From: Bacilli bacterium
Lineage (GTDB): Bacteria; Bacillota_I; Bacilli_A; RFN20; CAG-826
Reading direction: 5' to 3'
NCBI GenBank assembly: GCA_041653015.1
Contig: JBAZGG010000005.1
Location: 1,958-65,957, forward strand
Length of the DNA: 64,000 nucleotides
A program made the translations under genes and the position numbers. The notes beneath the pieces were generated by a model that saw only the letters and a list, made by a program, of their open reading frames with translations, made no database searches and was not told the DNA's origin. The first letter of the stretch is position 1. The number at the start of each line of letters is the position of its first letter. Positions 14,763 through 56,877 of this stretch are shown here, in pieces.

Positions 14763-14839
14763 GGCGAATGTGGTGAAGAGGCTAACACAACCGGCTGTGA
14801 ACCGGTCATTCGTGGGTTCGAGCCCCATCATTCGCCCCA
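14763..14839 (+). tRNA. tRNA-His(GUG), with encoded G-1 and CCA
   Basis: Stem GCGAATG/CATTCGC; anticodon arm ACCGG-CTGTGAA-CCGGT; T-loop TTCGAGC. Confidence 0.96.
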
Positions 14840-15117: not shown

Positions 15118-17523
15118 ATGGACAAATCTACTACTATGAATGAGAACAAATCGCTTTTTGATGGAAAATTGATCGAATTTATCGGTATTGTTTTTCTTTC
15201 TTGTTTGATTTCTGTTTGCACTTTAGGAATAGCCTTTCCATGGGCTCTTGTCTTGGTGTATCGCTGGCAAGTTAAGCACACGATATATGACGGGAAAGCG
15301 CTAAGATTTAATGGAACTGGTGGTCAATTGATCGGTTCTTATCTCAAATGGTTATTATTATGCATTATCACTTTGGGTATCTATTCATTATTTGTTCCAA
15401 TCAAAATAAAACAATGGCAGACTAAACACACTCATTTCGTCTCTTCTGACAAAGCGAGCGAGTCAGTTTTTATTGGCAAGTTTTATGCATTGTGGGGCAT
15501 TAATATACTGTCTGTTTTTTTATGCTTAATCACCCTTTCATTAGCGCTTCCTTTTGTCATTGCGATGAGAAAGAATTGGGAGGAAAAGAATACGATTATT
15601 GATGGTTATCATCTCGCATTCAATGGTCGCGGCATTCAACTATTTGGCAATTATATTAAATGGTTTCTGCTGTCGATTGTCACTCTAGGAATCTACTCAT
15701 TTTGGATTCCGATTAAATTTATGAAGTGGGGCGTTTCGCATACGTCAATTGTTGATCGGAATGTCAATCAGATTAAAAACGTTCAAATTGCAGATCGCTC
15801 AAGCGAGAGCAAAAACATGACGTCACCGCAACACTTTGATGATTTGAGCAGAGAAAAACTTCAAAATTATTATGCTAGAGAATCATTCAAAAAGAATAAT
15901 AAAATATTTGGGATTGTTTCAATTGTGACCATATCATTTTCCATTATTTACTATATGTTTTTGTTAATATATTCGATTTCCAGCAATATATCTATGTCAT
16001 ATTCATATTCTTCAGTCATCAATGTCCTCAATCTCATTTATACCATCGTGATGTTGCTGGTTAGCATATCATTATTATTGGTAATTATTTCTGCCTTGCG
16101 AGCCCCGGTGTTTGAATATAAAGTTGCAGGGAGATTCATCTTTTTTAGCAATGTGTTGATTATCGCTAGCATGTTGGTTGAATTTATTATTTTTATCGCT
16201 CAATTCAATGTCGCAATTCCTCTAGTAGTTTTATTTATGATCTTGTGTGCCGGCATTTTAGTTTCATATGCATTTTTCAGCGCAAAACTATTTGAGAATT
16301 ATACCCTAGTTATTTTTGAAGCTAAATCAAAGGCAAAAGCCTATAAAAAAATGGTGAAATCGTCAGTCGTTTTACTATGCATAAATTTATCAAACATCTT
16401 ACTTATTATTGTGATCTCGTCTGTTTCTCTGATATTAAATCTTAATAGACACACAGGTCCAACGGCTCCTGACATAACCCTCGTTCTACTATTTTATATA
16501 TTATCCATATTACCATTGATTTTTTCTTCAATTACTTATGTATATATACACTATTTTTTGAGACGCGGACTACCATTCTCAAAAAATGCTGCTCAATCTA
16601 ATAATATCGGCACAAATAATCAAAACCAGAATGATGATAAAAAAACAAGCTCTGTTATAGCGACAAGTTCTGCTCCTAGTTCCGATGGCGCCTTAATCGC
16701 ATTGAAATCAAAAACAGATTTTAAGAACGAGATAAAGCATGAAAAAGAAGATGAAGAAAGTGAACGTGCTGTAAAAAGCGAATCCGTCGGCTCTGTCTCA
16801 TTTGCAGGAGCTCATGCGAACAGAGAAAATGCTGTTGATTTATCAGCTGATCAGGCAATGAATAAAAATAAAAAAATCAAGAGGCTATCAGAATCGCTTA
16901 AAGAGAAATTCAAAACGTATGGAATACTGCACATCGTTGCAAACATAATCATACTTGTGGCATCAATTTTGATTCTTTGTATCCCAATATTGGATGTCTA
17001 TACTTATATTGAGAACGAGTATTTATTCCTTTCAAATTTGTCTTTGCTTTCTCTACCTTTTTATTTTGCACAGCAAATCCAGGATGTTCGAGGTATTTTT
17101 TCGGTTTACTTTTTAGTCATTTTTTCATACCCGATAGGCATTTATAGTATCGTAGCTATGGTAATTTCTATTGTTAGAATAATAAAAAATTCTATCGATG
17201 TTTTTGCTAAAAAGAATTATCCAATTAAAATGTGCGATGCAATAGCGACAAATGAAAAAAAGGTAAATGATTCCGTTTTGAAAAATTACGGATTTGGGTT
17301 CATATTTTTCCTTGTGTTTTATTGTATTTTGCTAGCAAGTTTATCGAATATTCTTTCTCGACTCACAGGGCAATATGGATTTGTAGTTAATATGTGGATT
17401 ATTTTCCCATGCATTCTTCTTGTTGGATATGTGGTGGTAATTATAATCCGCTCAGTGATGCTGAATCGAATTAAGGATACGATTTGTGATGAATTATATA
17501 GCACTGATCACGATGGGGAATAA
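15118..17523 (+). CDS. Large polytopic membrane protein with tandem DUF898/YjgN-like N-terminal repeats
   Basis: Repeated unit F.G...L.G..L...LL.I.TLGIY...V.....W..KHT occurs as two pairs; a polar linker and further TM bundles follow. Confidence 0.65.
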   Translation: MDKSTTMNENKSLFDGKLIEFIGIVFLSCLISVCTLGIAFPWALVLVYRWQVKHTIYDGKALRFNGTGGQLIGSYLKWLLLCIITLGIYSLFVPIKIKQWQTKHTHFVSSDKASESVFIGKFYALWGINILSVFLCLITLSLALPFVIAMRKNWEEKNTIIDGYHLAFNGRGIQLFGNYIKWFLLSIVTLGIYSFWIPIKFMKWGVSHTSIVDRNVNQIKNVQIADRSSESKNMTSPQHFDDLSREKLQNYYARESFKKNNKIFGIVSIVTISFSIIYYMFLLIYSISSNISMSYSYSSVINVLNLIYTIVMLLVSISLLLVIISALRAPVFEYKVAGRFIFFSNVLIIASMLVEFIIFIAQFNVAIPLVVLFMILCAGILVSYAFFSAKLFENYTLVIFEAKSKAKAYKKMVKSSVVLLCINLSNILLIIVISSVSLILNLNRHTGPTAPDITLVLLFYILSILPLIFSSITYVYIHYFLRRGLPFSKNAAQSNNIGTNNQNQNDDKKTSSVIATSSAPSSDGALIALKSKTDFKNEIKHEKEDEESERAVKSESVGSVSFAGAHANRENAVDLSADQAMNKNKKIKRLSESLKEKFKTYGILHIVANIIILVASILILCIPILDVYTYIENEYLFLSNLSLLSLPFYFAQQIQDVRGIFSVYFLVIFSYPIGIYSIVAMVISIVRIIKNSIDVFAKKNYPIKMCDAIATNEKKVNDSVLKNYGFGFIFFLVFYCILLASLSNILSRLTGQYGFVVNMWIIFPCILLVGYVVVIIIRSVMLNRIKDTICDELYSTDHDGE

Positions 17524-17792
17524 CTCTCATTTTTCGAGATTTGATGCACCGATTTATCATTGCGATCAATGGAAAGGAGTATTGGGCTAGTGTGATTAGA
17601 GGAGTTTTGTGACAATCAGCCACAAATGTTTACGATAACATTTAGCAAAATTTGTAACAATTATAGCTAATATCTGTGCTTTGAAACCGCTACCATTTTG
17701 CAAAAATTGATTTTAAAGTCAAAAAAACGTCTAAAAACCATCAAAAACAACATTATAGTGACAAAGTCACTAAAAAATAAATCATTTAATAG

Positions 17793-17821
17793 TTGACAAT
17801 CACTTCTTGAACGTATATTAT
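17793..17821 (+). promoter_or_regulatory. Likely promoter of the SipW/TasA-like operon
   Basis: TTGACA-17 nt-TATTAT about 175 nt upstream of ATG 17995. Confidence 0.6.
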
Positions 17822-17994
17822 TTACTCTGTGCAATGTGTTGAAGGTACCTTGGTAAACACGAAATTAGTGTGTGATTACTAGAGTAAGGTTCTGCGAGTG
17901 TGTCCTCCATCTTGTGCAAAATATAATGTTGGACCTTTTATTAAGTTAAAATACGTTCTTACATTAAGTTGTTGTAATTAGGGAGGAAAAACTC

Positions 17995-18537
17995 ATGAAA
18001 AACAAAAAAACAACAAAGAAATTCGCAATCGCTCTATTAGCATTGCTCGGCGTCGTTAGCACTGGCGCAACCTATGCGTATTGGCAAGGTGCAGTCCTAG
18101 GTGCAAATCAGAACGCTGCTGCAACGATCAACATTGGCCACGCCAGTGAAATCGAAACCGCTGTCAATGTCAGCAACTTAACCGCTGGCAAGGAACTCGT
18201 TCCAAGCGGAAGAGTTGAAGACGCCGCTACACAAACCGATTTAGTCGCATTTGATTTCAGTGTCACATGGACGGATGAAGATGCCGTGTTGTCTGATGCT
18301 GTCGCAAATGGTTCTCTATCAGTCGCTGTTACTGGCAAAACAATCGCTGGTGCTGCTGCTAACATTGGACTCGTCAATGTCACTCTTCCAGATGCCCAAG
18401 CAATCGTATTAAGTGGTTCCGCCGTTGCTGTTCATGTTGAAGTCACTTTGACTGAACCTGAAGACAAGGCTGTCTACGATGCCATCATCGATCAAGAAAT
18501 CATTGTTGCTCTCAATTTCGCTGTCGAAGTTGCTTAA
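17995..18537 (+). CDS. TasA/camelysin-like secreted protein with SipW-type signal peptide (candidate major fibre subunit)
   Basis: KK-rich N-region, hydrophobic core, GATYA|YW cleavage motif (cf. TasA GGTWA|AF), LVPSG (cf. LKPGD); Ala/Val-rich, acidic, Cys-free mature chain; strong GGGAGG RBS. Confidence 0.7.
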   Translation: MKNKKTTKKFAIALLALLGVVSTGATYAYWQGAVLGANQNAAATINIGHASEIETAVNVSNLTAGKELVPSGRVEDAATQTDLVAFDFSVTWTDEDAVLSDAVANGSLSVAVTGKTIAGAAANIGLVNVTLPDAQAIVLSGSAVAVHVEVTLTEPEDKAVYDAIIDQEIIVALNFAVEVA

Positions 18538-18570
18538 TTGATTGACCCAATACATTAATTGATTCTTATT

Positions 18571-18605
18571 GAAACGGGAACCACATGGTTTCCGTTTCTG
18601 TTTTT
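18571..18605 (+). terminator. Intra-operon stem-loop / leaky terminator
   Basis: GAAACGGGAACC-ACAT-GGTTTCCGTTTC followed by TGTTTTT. Confidence 0.75.
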
Positions 18606-18621
18606 GAAGGGAGGTTAATTT

Positions 18622-19950
18622 ATGAAGAAAAATAGCAAAATTTATGTAATTTCGCTTGTTTTACTTGGTTTATTAGCTTCTTTTTCTTCTACATATGCTT
18701 TTTGGCAAGGCTCGGTAAACGCATCATCAAACACTAACAATCAGAACATCTATATCGGTTCTTGGGATTTTGAAGAGAATACTTATGTGCGCCGACCACG
18801 TGGCATCCCGGAATTTGTTCTTGGGCATTATTATCCAGCGAATACCGTCGTTTGGTACGATGGGGCTTTTTACATCACGCGCGGTGATGGATGGCAAGAA
18901 GGATATCCACCTTCTCCCGATGCTTATAGTGCATACAACATGATTACCGTAAATCACCAGATTGGTAATACTTATTACAATAATGATGTTGTTTACTATG
19001 AAGGATGTTTTTATCGCGTCGTTGATGCCGGTAATGCTAACAATCATTATCCTGGCACGACCATGTATGGTTGGTACAATATGAATTCTATCAATTTTAC
19101 TTCTCATCAAAGATTCATGAAGAATGATTACACAATTTATCAAGGCATTCTTTATGTCTCATCGATCGATAATCAAGAAGAAAACTCATCTACGACCCCT
19201 GATTCGAGCAAATATTGGCATATCGCTGGATCGATGGAATACGATTTAAGCATTCGCTATTACGCAAATGATATCGTAGCGTTTAATGGTTTATACTATC
19301 GCGCTGCGTGGGAGACGATCGGTTCTAGCCCCGCTAACACAAATCCTTGGGGACCATGGATTAAAATAACTATCTCCTCCTATGAATCTGGAGTCACTTA
19401 TTCAAATGGACAGATCATTCTTTATGGTGGGCATCAGTATAAGGTCATGAATTCATCTCTTGCCGCCAACCATGCTCCGGGGACAATTACTGGCGCATAT
19501 AAACAGATCGATACATATACTTACACCAGCAATAATACATATTTAATCGGCGATGTCGTCATGTACAATGGTCAATATTGGAAAGCTGTCAACGCTGAAA
19601 ATGCTCAAAATAATCTCCCGGGCACAGTTAAAAATGCTTGGAATCTTCTAAATACAAGCGATTATCAGTGGTTTAATACATATAATTCCGGCGACTATGT
19701 CGTATGGCATAGCAAGAAATATATGGTATATGATGCCTCTCGCGCTAGTCTCTACGCTCCCAATACGGAACCTCGAGCTTGGAATATCGTCAATACTTTT
19801 GCCTATAACAATTATACCGTCTATACCCCTGGAGTCATCAGCGGGATAAGCATCTATAATGATGTGGCTTATCGCGCCATTCAAGAAACGGTGAGCAATT
19901 ATCCTCCAATAGATCCAATCCCATCAAATATATACTGGACTGAGTATTAA
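18622..19950 (+). CDS. SipW-signal protein with 8 tandem CBM5/12 (chitin-binding type 3)-like repeats
   Basis: STYA|FWQG cleavage motif; repeats of about 45 aa with consensus Y...Y..GD.V.Y.G..Y.........P.....W. Confidence 0.75.
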   Translation: MKKNSKIYVISLVLLGLLASFSSTYAFWQGSVNASSNTNNQNIYIGSWDFEENTYVRRPRGIPEFVLGHYYPANTVVWYDGAFYITRGDGWQEGYPPSPDAYSAYNMITVNHQIGNTYYNNDVVYYEGCFYRVVDAGNANNHYPGTTMYGWYNMNSINFTSHQRFMKNDYTIYQGILYVSSIDNQEENSSTTPDSSKYWHIAGSMEYDLSIRYYANDIVAFNGLYYRAAWETIGSSPANTNPWGPWIKITISSYESGVTYSNGQIILYGGHQYKVMNSSLAANHAPGTITGAYKQIDTYTYTSNNTYLIGDVVMYNGQYWKAVNAENAQNNLPGTVKNAWNLLNTSDYQWFNTYNSGDYVVWHSKKYMVYDASRASLYAPNTEPRAWNIVNTFAYNNYTVYTPGVISGISIYNDVAYRAIQETVSNYPPIDPIPSNIYWTEY

Positions 19951-19966
19951 TTATTAGGATAACGCC

Positions 19967-20551
19967 ATGAAACAAGAAAACAATCATGAAACGCAAAAAG
20001 AAAAAGTTATCGATATAGTGACGAGAGTTGGCATCTCGACATTGATCATCGCTATCTTATTCTTTGTCATCAGTTTTTTATATATTCCAACCTTTTCCTA
20101 TAATATGTATTCCATCGCCTCTTTCAGTGGTTTAGATGGAGTGGATTCTTCGCTGAATGAGAATGATTTATTGATCACGGAGAAACGCGATTTCACTCAG
20201 TCGCAAGGCGATGTCATCGTCTTTGATTTAAAAGGCTATGACGATAGCGATGGCATGATGGCTTATCGCTGTTTTGCTGTTCGTCAAGATCATGAGACTG
20301 GACTTCCATATTGTCTCGTCGGATCCACTGATAGTTCCATTTCCTACCCTTGGAAAGTAACTGAGGATATGTATCGAGGGACTGTGATTGTTCGCATCTC
20401 AGGAATGGGAGCTATAACCGGTTTCTTCGCAAATCCATTGAGCCTTATTTTTTGGGTTGTCGCTGGTGCTTCTGTCGCCGGTATTGTCATCATCGTTAAG
20501 CATAAGCCAAAAGAAAAATCTGAAAATGAAGATAAAGAAAGTAAAAAATGA
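19967..20551 (+). CDS. SipW-like S26 signal peptidase paralog, probably catalytically degenerate
   Basis: N- and C-terminal TMs and GDVIVF box present, but SFSG in place of SGSM and MAYRC in place of VTHRI. Confidence 0.55.
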   Translation: MKQENNHETQKEKVIDIVTRVGISTLIIAILFFVISFLYIPTFSYNMYSIASFSGLDGVDSSLNENDLLITEKRDFTQSQGDVIVFDLKGYDDSDGMMAYRCFAVRQDHETGLPYCLVGSTDSSISYPWKVTEDMYRGTVIVRISGMGAITGFFANPLSLIFWVVAGASVAGIVIIVKHKPKEKSENEDKESKK

Positions 20552-20575
20552 TTCATTTGAATCAAGCAATAACTG

Positions 20576-21328
20576 ATGGATGAATTAATCGAAATCTCTC
20601 GAAAGAGTGCCGAAGAAGAAAAAAAGAGTGTTGGACGCATCGTTTTTAACGTTATATTTTGGAGCGTATTCACATTTTTTGCGGCATACTTTATTTTTGA
20701 TACATTTTTGCCAAATAAGACCGTTTACATTTTCGGTATTAAAGGTTACACCGTCGAGAGCGAAAGTATGGTCGGTATCTACAACAAAAACGATGTTGTT
20801 TTCGTAAATGCCCCAGACTATGACAAACTGCAAGTTGGCGACATTATCACTTATGAGACGTATACAGTGACGAGAAGCGATAGTGGATTGAACTATTCAA
20901 TCATCACTTCTGACATTGTAAATACTCACTATTTGGCTGAAATCGGCACAGATGTCAATGGTGTGATATATTATCGGACGATGTGCTACGAAAACTTTCA
21001 TAAAGATTCGACGACATGGTCAAATTCAGATTATGATAAATACTATAATAAAAAAGGCGAAGAAGTTTTATTGCGACGAGAAGACATCTTAGGAAAGGCT
21101 GCTTTTTCTGTTCCTTGGGTCGGCAACATCAATAGTGTGTTTCAAGTTGTTTTTGGCGATCGCATATTCGTTTTATTGCTCTTCAGTGATGTCATCATCT
21201 TCTATTTGCTTTTCAGTATGCTGTGGTCTGATTATCGCAATTATCGCTCTGATAAGAGCGCGCTCGCTAAAAAGAATGAGAAAAAAGCGATAGATCAGAT
21301 TGAATATAAAAATGACCGAAAACAATAG
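20576..21328 (+). CDS. sipW: SipW-type (ER-type Ser/His) signal peptidase I
   Basis: N-terminal TM, YTVESESM (catalytic Ser), GDIITY, VNTHYL (His), ILGK..FSVPWVG, C-terminal TM. Confidence 0.75.
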   Translation: MDELIEISRKSAEEEKKSVGRIVFNVIFWSVFTFFAAYFIFDTFLPNKTVYIFGIKGYTVESESMVGIYNKNDVVFVNAPDYDKLQVGDIITYETYTVTRSDSGLNYSIITSDIVNTHYLAEIGTDVNGVIYYRTMCYENFHKDSTTWSNSDYDKYYNKKGEEVLLRREDILGKAAFSVPWVGNINSVFQVVFGDRIFVLLLFSDVIIFYLLFSMLWSDYRNYRSDKSALAKKNEKKAIDQIEYKNDRKQ

Positions 21329-21431
21329 TGTCGCGCACATAGTATAATCTCTGATGACGCCCTCATTTTATTAAAAAAATAAAAACATTTCTCCCGTTTC
21401 TGTACTACAATAAAAGTGCTAGTATTGGAAT

Positions 21432-22436
21432 ATGCAAAACAATAGAAAATTTTCTTTCCCCATTTTGGTGATCACAGCATTTATTTGTACCGCCTGCTCA
21501 CTCACGGGCCCCTCTCATGAAGTTCAAGAGTATTTCAGCGAGTTGCCATATCAGGACAATTTCAAAATAATGCAGCTGTCCGACATGCATTTTTCAAGCT
21601 ATGATAATTTGAAGGAAGACTTTAATTTCCTCGATTCGCTAATCGAAGAAGCAGAACCAAATCTCGTCGTCATCACTGGTGATTCATTCACTTTCGCTTC
21701 GAAAGACACCGTTAATTCGGTGCTCAATTTTTTTGAAAAAAAAGATATACCTTGGACTTACACTTTTGGCAATCACGATGAGCAGGTCTATGGTTCGAGC
21801 ACTTATATAAGCGAATATTTGGACTCATTAGACAATTGTTTATACCAATATTATGAGGATGATTTGACGGGACAAGGAAATAATATAATCAATTTAGTTA
21901 AAGATGGGAAGACGATGTATCAGATATTCGTTGTCGATTCCAATACCTACACTTATCAAAACTACACTGGCTATGACTATGTTCATGAAGATCAAATTGA
22001 ATGGTACAAGTCAGCGATTGAGAAAGTGAACAAGGAACGTTTTTCTGCATCGTGGAAAATCGGTGATGAGACTATTGACTCTTTAATTTTTCAGCACATT
22101 CCCATTCCTGAATACGCCGATGCGCTCATCGCTTATGCGGACAATCCATCAATCGGAACTGGTTGGAATAGAGAAAAATGCAGTCCGCCAAAGTATAATT
22201 CGGGCTTTTTTGATGTAATCAAAGAGTATAATTCGAGCAAAGCGATGTTTGTTGGTCACGACCACATCAATAATATTGATGTGCTATATGAAGGGGTTCA
22301 TTTAGTCTATGGTGCAAAATCGACAGATAACATGTATCACGACGACGATATGTTGGGATATCGATTAATCACCATCGAGAGCGAGACGAGTTTTTCAACA
22401 AGCGTCTTTTACCACGCGTATGGAGAAGCATTATGA
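21432..22436 (+). CDS. Calcineurin-like metallophosphoesterase lipoprotein
   Basis: CTAC lipobox-like, LSDMH, ITGD, FGNHD, FQHIP, GHDH. Confidence 0.85.
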   Translation: MQNNRKFSFPILVITAFICTACSLTGPSHEVQEYFSELPYQDNFKIMQLSDMHFSSYDNLKEDFNFLDSLIEEAEPNLVVITGDSFTFASKDTVNSVLNFFEKKDIPWTYTFGNHDEQVYGSSTYISEYLDSLDNCLYQYYEDDLTGQGNNIINLVKDGKTMYQIFVVDSNTYTYQNYTGYDYVHEDQIEWYKSAIEKVNKERFSASWKIGDETIDSLIFQHIPIPEYADALIAYADNPSIGTGWNREKCSPPKYNSGFFDVIKEYNSSKAMFVGHDHINNIDVLYEGVHLVYGAKSTDNMYHDDDMLGYRLITIESETSFSTSVFYHAYGEAL

Positions 22437-23955: not shown

Positions 23956-24211
23956 AAAAACTCTCCATTTCTTGCTATACGCAAGTTATATTAAACCATA
24001 TTATCAATAAAATATTAATATAATTTGCATAATCATCGAGAAGGCAAAGGCTGGTAATTGCTCGTCCAATCTCTTTTATTAAAGTATAAACATTGACTTG
24101 TTCATGAAAAATATCCAATATTAATAATGTTTGTTACGTTAATAATATGTTCTGATTGTTTATGCATAGATATTGAATTTTGAATTATATATGAGCCTAA
24201 GGAGAGATATC

Positions 24212-26848
24212 ATGGCTTTAAAACATTCTTCTCGCAAAGCTGTTATCGCTTGCTCATCAGTCCTTATGACTGTTGGTGTAGTCTTATCTTTTGCGCTTAA
24301 TCGAGTCAATTATCATTTATTCGATGCGATGGGTTCGACGACTTATTCTGTCACTTTTGATAAAGATAATGGCCAGTTGAGTGGCAACTATGTTACTGAA
24401 GTGACGAGCAATTCTAACGCCACGACAACTTTTGGCAACCATCTCGAAGTTGATTATTACCAATGTGGTTATTATCCATCGACCAAGACCGATATTTATG
24501 CTCAAATGAAAAAGGGCGTGGGATATTTCTATAACACCGATACCACAGATGTTTCAAATGGGATTTATCCGCTGACTGCTATTTCGAGCATCACGATTAA
24601 TTTCACAGGTGGCACGCCCACTATATATTATGGTTCATCTGAGAATCCAAGCACCAATAGCACAACACTGATAAGTGGTACTTCTATTGCTGTGTCAGGT
24701 GTCAATTTCTTTAAAGTGGCAGCCAATTCCTCAGGTGTTACTTACATAACATCGATAATCGCACAATATGTCTGCTCTACGACCCCGGTGTTAAATAGCG
24801 TTACCATATCTGATAGTGTTGAGCGTTATCAATTGGGTTCAACCTACAATGATGTCAATGGTCTATCTGTCGTAGCGAATTATAACACTGGTAATCAAAC
24901 TATTACCTCGGGATATATCATCTCTGGAACCGGTTTTGATCCCAGCAGCGCTTTTATAGCTACTGGTGAGTTCTCTGTTCAAGTAACCTATGAAGGCACA
25001 ACATCTAATTCTTTGGCGGTTACTGTCTATGATCCAAGCGTTCCGACGGCACCAAATTCAATAGCTCTTAACAAAACGACGCTCTCACTTTCATCTGGTG
25101 CCACATCGGCGCTCACATATACATTATCTCCATCCTATAGCACAACTACTGTTACATGGTCATCTTCATCGCAGAGTGTTGCTACCGTATCGGACAATGG
25201 TTTAGTGACGGCTAAAGCGGATGGAACATCTGATATCGTAGCAACGACAGCAAACGGAAAGAGTGCAACCTGCTCTGTTACCGTATCTTCTCATTACGCT
25301 ACCTCAATAACTTTAAATAAGCATACTGAAGTGAAAATTAATACGACCGGAAGCACAACTTTGACTTATACGATTCTCCCAACAATCGCCGCATCGACGA
25401 CAATAGTTACCTGGAGTTCATCAAACACTAGCATTGCGACTGTTTCTGATGGAACGGTTACTGGTGTCAGCGGTGGATCGGTGCAAATAACTGCTCGAAC
25501 CAATAATGGATTGATTGCAACATGTGATGTATGCGTCTACAAGAGTTCTTTGACGAGCGGATATTCAATCACGACATCTGGTGTTGATTCAACGACATAT
25601 ACAGCATCGACGATTATGGAGGCTTCCGCTTATGTTTCTTTGGCGGTGATTCGCCACCATACGAAAGTAACCGTTTTATTCGCTTTTAATAACACGATGA
25701 GCAGCAGCGATTTCGTCACATATATGATGGAAGTTGATTCCAGCTCAACGATCGTCGCTTCGACATATGCGACAGGCAGTAATAAAACTAATGTTTTTTC
25801 TATTTCTTATCTCTCATCTTGCGCTACTATTCATTCTTCTGAATCCGAAACATATCCAGACTTGCTAGATGCCAATAATATTCTTCGCCAAAGAACAATG
25901 ACACACCGCGATGCTAGTTATAATTCCTTTCCGATAGATCAGGAGAATAACGGAACTCTGAGCATATATAACTCCGAAGAGTTGTGGTGGGCATTAAATC
26001 ATGGTTACAAGCCATCTTTTCCCACAACTAACAGCAAAGCCGAGGCGTTCTATCTAGAATGCAAAGATATTTTGCGAAACATTCTAAACGATGATATGAG
26101 TGACTTCATGAAAGTGATGACTATTTATCGATTTATTGAAGATAATAGTTGGTATGACTACGCCTCACTAGATTATTCTGGTAATTGGACTAATAACACT
26201 GCATATTATCTCGAAGGATTTTTACAACATCGAACATGTGTTTGCGATGGTTATTCAAAAGTGATGGCACTCCTTTGCGGTATTGAAAATCTCGAAGTGG
26301 TGAGAGGCTACGGTTATGATACTAATGGTGGTCACGCTTGGAATTATGCCAAGATCAATGGAACATGGTATCTCGTTTGCCCGACATGGGGTCAAGCTGA
26401 TTTATCCTCTTCAGCTACAGGCAATATATTTGGCACCGCAACATCATATATCGATTATGGTGCTTTCATGACAAAATCATCTTATTTCACCGATAATTCA
26501 GACTATAATTTCGTGCAAAAAATATGGCAAGAGGCTATTAATGGTGCTACTTCCGTCTATTCAAATATCATGATACAAGACACTTTTACATATAATTCGA
26601 CATCATATGATTTCTATATCGATAGCGCCGCTAATTTGACTTCTGTCTTTGCTGCATTATCGACAAATGGAATTATTGGCAACGACATGTATGTGACTCT
26701 CCAAGATTCAAGCAGTTATGTGACGACCAACACAGTGTCTAGCGCTTTATCAGCAGCAGGCATTTCATATTCGACACTTGGCATTATCACCAGCACTTCC
26801 GGTTGTAGTGGTAGCAACACTTACAAAACCGTATTGATTAATGTTTAA
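24212..26848 (+). CDS. Surface protein with Ig-like (Big_2) domains and a transglutaminase-like domain
   Basis: Signal/TM anchor; two VTWSSS...VATVS...VTA repeats; VCDGYS and GGHAWN; ATG 24212 after AAGGAG. Confidence 0.8.
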   Translation: MALKHSSRKAVIACSSVLMTVGVVLSFALNRVNYHLFDAMGSTTYSVTFDKDNGQLSGNYVTEVTSNSNATTTFGNHLEVDYYQCGYYPSTKTDIYAQMKKGVGYFYNTDTTDVSNGIYPLTAISSITINFTGGTPTIYYGSSENPSTNSTTLISGTSIAVSGVNFFKVAANSSGVTYITSIIAQYVCSTTPVLNSVTISDSVERYQLGSTYNDVNGLSVVANYNTGNQTITSGYIISGTGFDPSSAFIATGEFSVQVTYEGTTSNSLAVTVYDPSVPTAPNSIALNKTTLSLSSGATSALTYTLSPSYSTTTVTWSSSSQSVATVSDNGLVTAKADGTSDIVATTANGKSATCSVTVSSHYATSITLNKHTEVKINTTGSTTLTYTILPTIAASTTIVTWSSSNTSIATVSDGTVTGVSGGSVQITARTNNGLIATCDVCVYKSSLTSGYSITTSGVDSTTYTASTIMEASAYVSLAVIRHHTKVTVLFAFNNTMSSSDFVTYMMEVDSSSTIVASTYATGSNKTNVFSISYLSSCATIHSSESETYPDLLDANNILRQRTMTHRDASYNSFPIDQENNGTLSIYNSEELWWALNHGYKPSFPTTNSKAEAFYLECKDILRNILNDDMSDFMKVMTIYRFIEDNSWYDYASLDYSGNWTNNTAYYLEGFLQHRTCVCDGYSKVMALLCGIENLEVVRGYGYDTNGGHAWNYAKINGTWYLVCPTWGQADLSSSATGNIFGTATSYIDYGAFMTKSSYFTDNSDYNFVQKIWQEAINGATSVYSNIMIQDTFTYNSTSYDFYIDSAANLTSVFAALSTNGIIGNDMYVTLQDSSSYVTTNTVSSALSAAGISYSTLGIITSTSGCSGSNTYKTVLINV

Positions 26849-45211: not shown

Positions 45212-45285
45212 GGTTCCTTAGCCAAGTGGTAAGGCAATTGACTGCAACTCAATGAGCGTCGGTTCAACTCCGTCAGGAACCTCCA
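45212..45285 (+). tRNA. tRNA-Cys(GCA)
   Basis: GGTTCCT/AGGAACC; ATTGA-CTGCAAC-TCAAT; CCA encoded. Confidence 0.95.
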
Positions 45286-45352
45286 ATTTATTCTTGTTTA
45301 GTATAGCTATCATGGCTTATACTAGTCAAAGCACTCTTGAGTGAGTGCTCGT

Positions 45353-45429
45353 GCGCCTATAGTTCAACTGGATAGAGCGTCAGACTACGAATCTGAAGGT
45401 TGCAGGTTCGACTCCTGCTAGGCGCGCCA
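45353..45429 (+). tRNA. tRNA-Arg(ACG)
   Basis: GCGCCTA/TAGGCGC; TCAGA-CTACGAA-TCTGA. Confidence 0.96.
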
Positions 45430-45433
45430 GAAT

Positions 45434-45510
45434 CGGGATGTAGCGTAGCTTGGTATCGCGTCTGCTTTGGGAGCAGAAGGCCGCAGGTTCAAATCCTGTC
45501 ATCCCGACCA
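45434..45510 (+). tRNA. tRNA-Pro(UGG)
   Basis: CGGGATG/CATCCCG; TCTGC-TTTGGGA-GCAGA. Confidence 0.96.
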
Positions 45511-45516
45511 TTATTT

Positions 45517-45592
45517 GGGGTTATAGCTCAGCTGGGAGAGCGCCTGGTTTGCAACCAGGAGGTCAGGGGTTCGATCCCCCTTAGCTCCACCA
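45517..45592 (+). tRNA. tRNA-Ala(UGC)
   Basis: GGGGTTA/TAGCTCC with G3-U70; CCTGG-TTTGCAA-CCAGG. Confidence 0.96.
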
Positions 45593-45596
45593 AGAT

Positions 45597-45672
45597 GGCT
45601 GCGTAGCTCAGCTGGCAGAGCAGTCGGTTCATACCCGGCTTGTCGAGGGTTCGATCCCCCCCGCAGCTACCA
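45597..45672 (+). tRNA. tRNA-Met(CAU), elongator type
   Basis: GGCTGCG/CGCAGCT; GTCGG-TTCATAC-CCGGC; loop resembles Firmicute elongator Met. Confidence 0.88.
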
Positions 45673-48255: not shown

Positions 48256-48331
48256 GGACCAATAGCTCAATGGTTAGAGCTCCCCGCTCATAACGGGTCG
48301 GTTCTGGGTTCAAGTCCTAGTTGGTCCACCA
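48256..48331 (+). tRNA. tRNA(CAU), Ile2 (lysidine) type
   Basis: GGACCAA/TTGGTCC; CTCATAA loop; body resembles Firmicute tRNA-Ile2. Confidence 0.85.
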
Positions 48332-48335
48332 AAAT

Positions 48336-48426
48336 GGAGAATTACCCAAGTGGTTGAAGGGGTCGGTCTTGAAAACCGATAGGGGATGTAAGTCCCGCTA
48401 GAGTTCGAATCTCTAATTCTCCGCCA
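48336..48426 (+). tRNA. tRNA-Ser(UGA)
   Basis: GGAGAAT/ATTCTCC; TCGGT-CTTGAAA-ACCGA; long variable arm; G discriminator + CCA. Confidence 0.95.
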
Positions 48427-52965: not shown

Positions 52966-53042
<77 letters not shown>

Positions 53043-56718: not shown

Positions 56719-56794
56719 GGACCAGTGGTGTAGCGATTAACATGTCTCCCTGTCACGGAGAAGATCGCGGGTTTAAGTCCCGTCTGGTCCGCCA
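56719..56794 (+). tRNA. tRNA-Asp(GUC) with A19/U56
   Basis: GGACCAG/CTGGTCC; TCTCC-CTGTCAC-GGAGA; G73. Confidence 0.93.
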
Positions 56795-56801
56795 AAAGTG
56801 T

Positions 56802-56877
<76 letters not shown>

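Follow-up and report, generated by a model that had tools for sequence, protein, structure and literature searches.

A predicted SipW-type fibre operon with a tandem CBM5/12 partner protein in a Bacilli bacterium

TasA-type donor-strand fibres are the main known sortase-independent protein scaffold of Gram-positive biofilms, and chaperone-usher pili also rely on strand complementation. In the Bacillus subtilis operon tapA-sipW-tasA, the N-terminus of TapA donates a strand to TasA, and the immunoglobulin-like (Ig) fold of TapA is itself complete (PMC10151520). For sipW-bsaA-bsaB-bsaC of Clostridium perfringens, a coupling of SipW cleavage to donor-strand exchange has been proposed, and many operons with signal peptidases and several paralogs have been reported, those of Coprobacillaceae included (PMC11580942). 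The archaeal bundling pili AbpA/AbpB have a jelly-roll subunit polymerised via N-terminal donor-strand insertion, and the larger protein encoded downstream has been proposed as assembly initiator and adhesin (PMC9245690). Here we analyse a four-gene operon (genes A to D) in a 64,000-nucleotide stretch from the assembly of an uncultured, Erysipelotrichaceae-like Bacilli bacterium (GCA_041653015.1, contig JBAZGG010000005.1, positions 1,958 to 65,957 of the forward strand; hereafter the window, from whose first letter coordinates are counted). We consider it reasonably probable, at roughly 0.6, that this operon encodes a sortase-independent surface fibre on the TasA/TapA/SipW principle, with a glycan-binding initiator or cap.

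An earlier model-made reading of the letters of the window (the original prediction) had described four co-oriented genes, and the open reading frame (ORF) listing of the window indeed places all four ORFs on the + strand, spanning 17995-21328:

17995-18537, + strand: gene A, 180 amino acids (aa); putative major fibre subunit, the linker behind its signal peptide being variable
18622-19950, + strand: gene B, 442 aa; secreted, signal peptide and N-terminal module (N-module), then CBM5/12-like units
19967-20551, + strand: gene C, 194 aa; S26B paralog, predicted pseudo-peptidase
20576-21328, + strand: gene D, 250 aa; divergent endoplasmic reticulum (ER)/archaeal-type (SipW-like) signal peptidase, by prediction

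The logic of tapA-sipW-tasA, which that reading had recognised here, is borne out in that an S26B peptidase lies beside secreted proteins with an unusual common cleavage-site motif paralleling TWA↓AF of TasA (arrows mark cleavage sites). Like the B. subtilis operon, the window locus encodes, beside the presumed substrates, an ER-type S26B peptidase that is dedicated to them and has a membrane segment at each terminus; its major subunit and minor partner have a cleavage region and a mature N-terminal strand in common. Shared, too, are small-aromatic-Ala↓x-aromatic-polar as the context of the presumed cut and independence from sortase, and the predicted beta-sandwich of the subunit has TasA as its best, albeit non-significant, match in the PDB. 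The window locus differs in its gene order, here subunit-partner-peptidases, in carrying an extra, apparently dead peptidase paralog, and in that the SipW GDNN motif with Asp106 is not conserved. TasA has 261 aa whereas A has 180 (about 150 when mature) and is detected by neither PF12389 nor TIGR04088, and TapA is a single Ig domain whereas B consists of about eight CBM5/12 modules.

The four genes of the C. perfringens bsa operon likewise combine a SipW-type peptidase with a polymerising TasA-like subunit of small size and a large secreted accessory protein, whose adhesive domain is VWA rather than CBM5/12 (PMC11580942). Unlike bsa, family A (gene A and its relatives) has no conserved Lys/Glu/Asn isopeptide triad, the window locus gives no sign of type IV pilus involvement, and the accessory protein B itself bears the putative donor-strand module. 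Archaeal bundling pili loci lack a dedicated signal peptidase, unlike the window locus, and no sequence similarity to AbpA/AbpB was detected. With chaperone-usher and sortase pili the operon shares a major subunit and a minor adhesin, with the minor components attenuated, but it has no usher, chaperone, sortase or LPXTG; moreover, a FimH-type tip adhesin is acceptor-only, whereas B would be donor-only. The original prediction went too far in calling the architecture undescribed: the fibre principle is known and widespread, operons with signal peptidases and several paralogs included, and the general architecture has been reported as such (PMC9245690, PMC11580942).

The shared N-terminal module and the two secreted proteins

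The two secreted proteins share an N-terminal T-Y-A-[YF]-W-Q-G, read as TYAYW at residues 26-30 of A and TYAFW at residues 24-28 of B, which is found in no other ORF of the window. Even when the relaxed form [YF][ASG][YFW][WF][DNQAES] is sought in the first 70 residues of every window ORF of 60 aa or more (151 ORFs), A and B alone carry it; it occurs three times in total in 26,647 ORF residues, which speaks against an accident of composition. Both proteins have a basic n-region followed by a hydrophobic core, their sole hydrophobic segment, with the conserved motif directly after it. Neither has an LPXTG-like motif or a C-terminal membrane segment, and neither has a class III (type IV pilin) signal peptide, in which the cut (G↓F...E5) precedes the helix; the system was thus correctly described as sortase-independent and non-type-IV. 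The elements of the two proteins are:

17995-18078, + strand: predicted signal peptide of A, residues 1-28 (KNKKTTKK, hydrophobic core, T-Y-A)
18118-18138, + strand: putative donor strand of A, residues 42-48, AATINIG
18745-18759, + strand: counterpart in B of A's IxIG strand, residues 42-46, NIYIG
18826-19947, + strand: tandem CBM5/12 (ChtBD3-like) repeats, residues 69-442 of B

By analogy with TasA (GGGTWA↓AFND), A would be cleaved after A28; in the TasA fibre structure 8AUR, the mature chain starts at Ala28, at the site TWA↓AF. Residues 42-48 of A may then act as the donor strand. The IxIG strand lies 20 residues from the aromatic pair in both A and B, and the likeness of the two proteins is limited to the signal peptide and this mature N-terminus of about 20 residues. 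Across 79 members of family A, W30 is kept in all 79, G48 in 78, Y29 in 68 and A28 in 67; a 40-sequence alignment of the TasA family has G24, T25, A27, F29, N30 and D31 invariant, together with G42 and L44 of the donor strand. Two of the most strongly kept sites of family A are N-terminal, W30 at +2 from the presumed cleavage site and G48 in the IxIG strand, and the two families are alike in having invariant sites near the presumed cleavage site and a Gly in the N-terminal strand. TIGR04088, the 34-position model of SipW-cognate signal peptides, scored A at 14.9 bits (cutoff 19 bits, E 0.022, model positions 1-19 only) and matched neither B nor two distant family members; the TasA control reached 42.1 bits.

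Between its signal peptide and its first CBM unit, B has only FWQGSVNASSNTNNQNIYIGSWDF, equal in length, residue for residue, to YWQGAVLGANQNAAATINIGHASE of A, a space too short for a pilin-type sandwich; B accordingly lacks a pilin domain. What follows was predicted to be a multi-CBM protein, and this holds: Pfam PF02839 (CBM_5_12) matches B in three stretches (39.9 bits, cutoff 26.2, E 4.4e-10), and inspection of the motif Y-x-x-G-D-x-V-x-Y-x-G-x-x-Y...P...W delimits about eight units of about 47 aa, with motif-defined starts near residues 70, 118, 166, 213, 260, 307, 354 and 401. The modules are predicted to bind glycans of the chitin/cellulose type. Direct search of B against PDB sequences gave no match.

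Gene A belongs to a large family. A profile search of 1.84 billion cluster representatives (clusters at 50% identity) recovered 767 at E <= 1e-3, of which 562 had E <= 1e-10; nearly all are 150-210 aa long. A word-indexed search recovered only 14 relatives. Members with a source name, from Erysipelotrichia, Bacilli and Streptococcus agalactiae, are all annotated 'hypothetical protein'. Near-invariant positions include W30, G48, L68-V69-P70, V90, T151, P155, Y161 and F175, with E154 kept in 71/79. None of the 79 representatives reached a Pfam threshold; among the weak matches, all below cutoff, Peptidase_M73 (TasA/camelysin) was the most frequent (5/79, best E 0.0036). The AlphaFold2 (AF2) model of A, built on the 79-sequence alignment (mean predicted local distance difference test score, pLDDT, 84), has a signal-peptide helix, a disordered linker at 30-40, a lower-confidence strand at 42-47 and a confident core of eight strands in a beta-sandwich plus one short helix. 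When two models of A were compared with the PDB by Foldseek, TasA (5OF2/5OF1) had the highest TM-score and probability with both, with a query TM-score (TMq) of 0.37 and 0.40 over 180 residues, about 40 of them signal peptide and linker, probabilities of 0.98 and 0.89, and E of 8e-3 and 5.5e-2. Direct sequence search of A against the PDB returned noise only. An isopeptide 'lock' of the BsaA/SpaA type was considered for A and rejected: there is no conserved Lys/Asn pair (candidates K66 and N166 occur in 41/79 and 46/79), and SpaA reached a Foldseek TMq of 0.24.

Related loci and layout of the operon

Genes of family A were found in company at 11 locus types beyond the window, with relatives in Erysipelotrichia, Izemoplasma and Mycoplasmatota:

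L001, 79-kb metagenome contig: all four genes
L006, Erysipelotrichaceae metagenome-assembled genome (MAG): all four genes; A 84% identical
L002/L003, metagenome contigs: A and S26B peptidase
L005 and L013, metagenome contigs: A, CBM_5_12 protein and S26B peptidase
L007, Streptococcus uberis, and L012, protein cluster shared with S. agalactiae records: A, S26B peptidase and B-type protein
L008, Bacilli MAG: A paralogs, S26B peptidase and B-type protein
L010, Mycoplasmatota WC30, complete genome: A paralogs, S26B peptidase and B-type protein
L011, uncultured bacterium: A paralogs, S26B peptidase and B-type protein
L009 (=L004), Izemoplasma: A and B-type protein, then contig end

A is paired with a partner carrying the N-module in 9/11 locus types, the exceptions being L002/3, with A and a peptidase only, and L005, where the CBM partner has an unreadable N-terminus. 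In 10/11, the family-A gene is no more than three genes from an S26B peptidase; the contig of L009 ends too early. CBM_5_12 partners outside the window occur in L001, L005, L012 and L013. The flanking genes differ at every locus. Those of the window, which encode tRNA-His, a NUDIX protein, an isochorismatase, a metallophosphoesterase and a DUF898 membrane protein, bear no relation to the cluster. Near-identical sequences come from groundwater, landfill, digesters and wastewater; among RNA runs, related sequence was present in one only, with 6% of words in common.

The distance from the aromatic pair to the IxIG Gly varies between loci and does so together in A and its partner: across nine A/partner pairs it is 20/20 in two, 21/20 in two, 16/16 in four and 20/22 in one. 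The correlation (r = 0.93) is drawn from pairs that are not phylogenetically independent, the loci forming two phylogenetic groups, and it is suggestive of co-evolution of module length between A and its partner rather than of nine independent events.

The copies at L007:945-2683 and L012:2284-4023 consist of a family-A gene, an S26B peptidase and a B-type protein, all annotated 'hypothetical protein', and the A protein of L007 falls in a cluster with named members from many S. agalactiae assemblies. Next to them lie a HepT/MNT toxin-antitoxin pair, ImmA/HTH, a recombinase fragment and DUF262, a setting that suggests carriage by a mobile or defence island. At L008:7944-9826, L010:7995-11224 and L011:7159-8420, a single operon has two or three family-A paralogs; such multiplicity would permit heteropolymeric fibres, as with TasA/CalY of Bacillus cereus.

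Three candidate control elements accompany the window operon:

17793-17821, + strand: sigma-70-like promoter, TTGACA-17-TATTAT, 11/12 matches; consensus match only
17822-17994, + strand: long 5' leader, with a block kept in L006 (L006:7840-8000) and the ribosome-binding site GGAGGAAAAACTC just before the ATG
18571-18598, + strand: 12-bp GC-rich hairpin with U-rich tail between A and B, z = -3.5

The promoter-like site lies about 175 nt from the start of gene A, and an equivalent site (TTGACA-18-TATTAT) is found upstream of the A orthologue of L001. The leader block common to the window and L006 reads GTGTyGAAGGTACCTTGGTA ... GAGTGTGTCCTCC, and the leader may be an undescribed regulatory one; Rfam gave no matches across 17400-21500, leader and A-B hairpin included. 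L006 has the same hairpin at the same position, and L001 has a hairpin there with a wholly different stem sequence. It is probably a partial terminator or an mRNA-stabilising hairpin. A hairpin behind the gene of a major subunit is the classic layout for an excess of subunit over downstream minor components, and the one here implies a large excess of A over the downstream products.

The paired peptidase genes

Both C and D have a hydrophobic segment at each terminus, which is the topology of SipW. Peptidases adjoining A-family genes in distant loci are more readily classified than either, with 4/5 of those tested passing TIGR02228 and SipW as the second-best model; a profile scan of C gave TIGR02227 only (18.9 bits, E 1e-3). 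In hhalign comparison with the locus-linked S26B peptidases over about 150 columns, D reached 99.4% probability (E 5e-21) and C 96.5% (E 8e-10), and on this basis we regard both as true S26B homologues. Direct searches of C and D against PDB sequences returned noise only, and the canonical peptidase of L010 had no match there, so that no catalytic placement based on SEC11 could be made.

The catalytic triad of SipW is S47, H87 and D106 (PMC8767453), and the B. subtilis enzyme, translated from the tapA-sipW-tasA locus, served as reference for catalytic residues. Ser64 (ESESM) and His118 (NTHYL) of D align with S47 and H87, and the Ser and His are kept in all distant-locus peptidases. At the same columns C has a gap or Gly58 in place of the Ser and Ala99/Tyr100 in place of the His, and the loss is common to its orthologues in L001 and L006, which are only about 50-65% identical. 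Judged by these residues, C is a catalytically dead pseudo-peptidase, and D is the one probable enzyme of the pair; of the two SipW paralogs originally proposed, then, both are homologues of the family, but only D can be catalytic.

Among the loci compared, C-type genes turn up in the window's own clade only, and the more distant loci have a single peptidase. An Asp in a D-x-W motif, kept in the canonical members (all from single-peptidase loci), is T/S in D, with E139 and D144 nearby. D and its orthologues, which lack this Asp, also carry two clade-specific insertions, one of about 11 aa following the GDII motif and another of about 16 aa (NSDYDKYYNKKGEEVL) ahead of the last conserved block. 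These insertions and the lost D-x-W Asp raise the possibility that the activity of D depends on C. A second role of SipW, one that is non-proteolytic, has been reported (Terra et al. 2012, cited in PMC8767453), which makes a structural or regulatory role for a non-catalytic C plausible. C is probably an accessory membrane component, which may either work together with D or bind the shared N-module without cleaving it. A more specific and rather doubtful proposal makes C a non-cleaving receptor that would keep the uncleaved signal peptide of the basal subunit in the membrane and pass subunits to D, giving a base-growing fibre anchored without peptidoglycan or sortase, with B at its distal tip. 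If true, this would be a pilus anchor based on a pseudo-enzyme and suited to wall-poor Bacilli and Mycoplasmatota.

Interpretation and significance

We take as established the gene order, the motif common to A and B, the homology of C and D to S26B peptidases, their Ser/His status, the CBM domains, synteny and hairpin conservation, and infer from these a mechanism of fibre assembly. A and B would be exported via Sec and held in the membrane by an N-terminal signal peptide ending in T-Y-A↓[YF]-W-Q-G, and D, as a dedicated ER-type S26B peptidase, would cut at T-Y-A↓[YF]-W, freeing a mature N-terminal stretch, about 20 residues long, with the short beta-strand x-I-x-I-G at its end. The strand of each A would insert into the beta-sandwich of a neighbouring A by donor-strand exchange, giving a linear polymer, a step to which the conserved IxIG strand common to A and B lends indirect support. 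The scheme recalls the SipW-coupled assembly close to the membrane that has been proposed for BsaA of C. perfringens (PMC11580942). B, with a strand and no sandwich, would fill one A groove and accept none; being donor-only, it would serve as initiator or end-cap, as TapA does for TasA and much as has been proposed for AbpB of archaeal bundling pili (PMC9245690), and would place its eight or so CBM5/12 modules at one end of the fibre. The polyvalent 'tip' of the original prediction was an assumption, and a donor-strand-only B looks more like TapA (initiator or cap) than like a FimH-type tip pilin. The hairpin after A would set the stoichiometry at much A and little B, C and D.

Several results weigh against this reading. 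PF12389 scores A at 16.0 bits, against a cutoff of 22.5 (E 0.011, residues 16-71 only); hhalign of family A with the 40-sequence TasA family gives 16.5% probability (E 1.5e-3, 35 C-terminal columns, a non-significant match in which the last two strands align colinearly) and with a single TasA sequence 2%; the family A profile found nothing among PDB sequences; and all Foldseek E-values exceed 1e-3, with TMq at most 0.40. D falls below the curated S26 cutoffs (TIGR02228 34.8 bits against 51.85, E 1.3e-8; SipW model NF046067 21 bits against 190, E 2e-4), the SipW Asp106 column is variable across the locus-linked clade with an ambiguous equivalent in D, and T-Y-A fits the ordinary -3/-1 rule, so that cleavage by the housekeeping signal peptidase I is also possible. 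Since PF12389, TIGR04088 and hhalign all stay below significance, A does not qualify formally as a demonstrable TasA-family member, and the 'TasA-like pilin' first proposed is not sustained: A appears to resemble TasA in its context and cleavage-site pattern and, in the models, weakly in fold, TasA being its best though non-significant match.

The same facts, namely the common motif, S26B linkage and CBM domains, fit equally well if D is a substrate-specific peptidase for a small secreted regulon, with A monomeric, B a soluble or surface glycan binder, and the N-module a recognition or sorting signal only, an account that the non-significant TasA homology of A also favours. We nevertheless find it less likely: conservation continues for about 20 residues beyond the cut, as far as an invariant Gly within a beta-strand, more than a peptidase usually reads; the length of the module varies jointly in A and B; the hairpin behind A implies that A is made in large excess, as structural subunits typically are; and TasA ranks first among the fold matches of A. 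It is still less probable that A and B keep their signal segments uncleaved as type II membrane anchors on the surface of a cell that may be wall-poor, C and D being non-proteolytic partners or acting on other substrates. AF2 does draw residues 7-31 of A as one continuous helix through the motif, C is certainly non-catalytic, and relatives occur in the wall-less Izemoplasma and Mycoplasmatota; against this, a helical rendering of signal peptides is routine for AF2, Ser and His are kept in D and all distant-locus peptidases, and the small-x-small T-Y-A stands before an invariant aromatic pair exactly as in TasA. A chance neighbourhood, in which the four genes are unrelated and C and D are housekeeping signal peptidases, could appeal to the weak direct profile scores of C and D and to nothing else, and it is hardly credible: the motif is exclusive to A and B, and the gene set is kept over 11 locus types with unrelated flanks, from Erysipelotrichaceae to Streptococcus and Mycoplasmatota, a synteny that effectively refutes chance co-location.

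Elsewhere in the window, Pfam scans of 20 other proteins revealed no cell-wall, sortase or pilus genes. A predicted surface protein of 891 aa (24173-26848), with two Big_2 Ig-like domains and a transglutaminase core, is encoded 3 kb downstream of the operon and lacks the N-terminal motif of A and B. Directly upstream, at 15118-17523, lies the gene of a polytopic membrane protein (801 aa) in which DUF898 and DUF6693 are repeated, an adjacency not kept in other loci. The window has 11 tRNA genes, all on the + strand:

14764-14839, + strand: tRNA-His
45212-45672, + strand: tRNA cluster Cys-Arg-Pro-Ala-Met
48256-48426, + strand: tRNA cluster Met-Ser
52966-53042, + strand: tRNA-Met
56719-56877, + strand: tRNA cluster Asp-Phe

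What is new here is an extensive family of putative subunits that escapes the TasA and SipW-signal models now in use. To this we add what appears to be a donor-strand-only partner built of tandem CBM5/12 modules, a conserved S26B paralog predicted to be catalytically dead, and the presence of the system in lineages of the wall-less Mycoplasmatota type as well as on an apparent mobile island of streptococci. Among the papers listed in the library searched, none links SipW with Erysipelotrichia, with Mollicutes-type lineages, or with chitin binding or CBM5.

The reach of TasA-type fibres is now mapped by PF12389 and TIGR04088, both of which miss family A, whose members come from environmental Erysipelotrichia, from Izemoplasma and Mycoplasmatota, both wall-less, and, in S. 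agalactiae and S. uberis, from what appears to be a mobile island. Its minimal operon of subunit, donor-strand adhesin and peptidase is a tractable one in which to ask how cleavage and strand exchange are coupled, how such a fibre acquires its adhesin, and what purpose a dead peptidase serves. Should chitin or cellulose be the ligand of the CBM5/12 array, the fibre would hold these anaerobes on particulate polysaccharide in groundwater, landfill and digesters.

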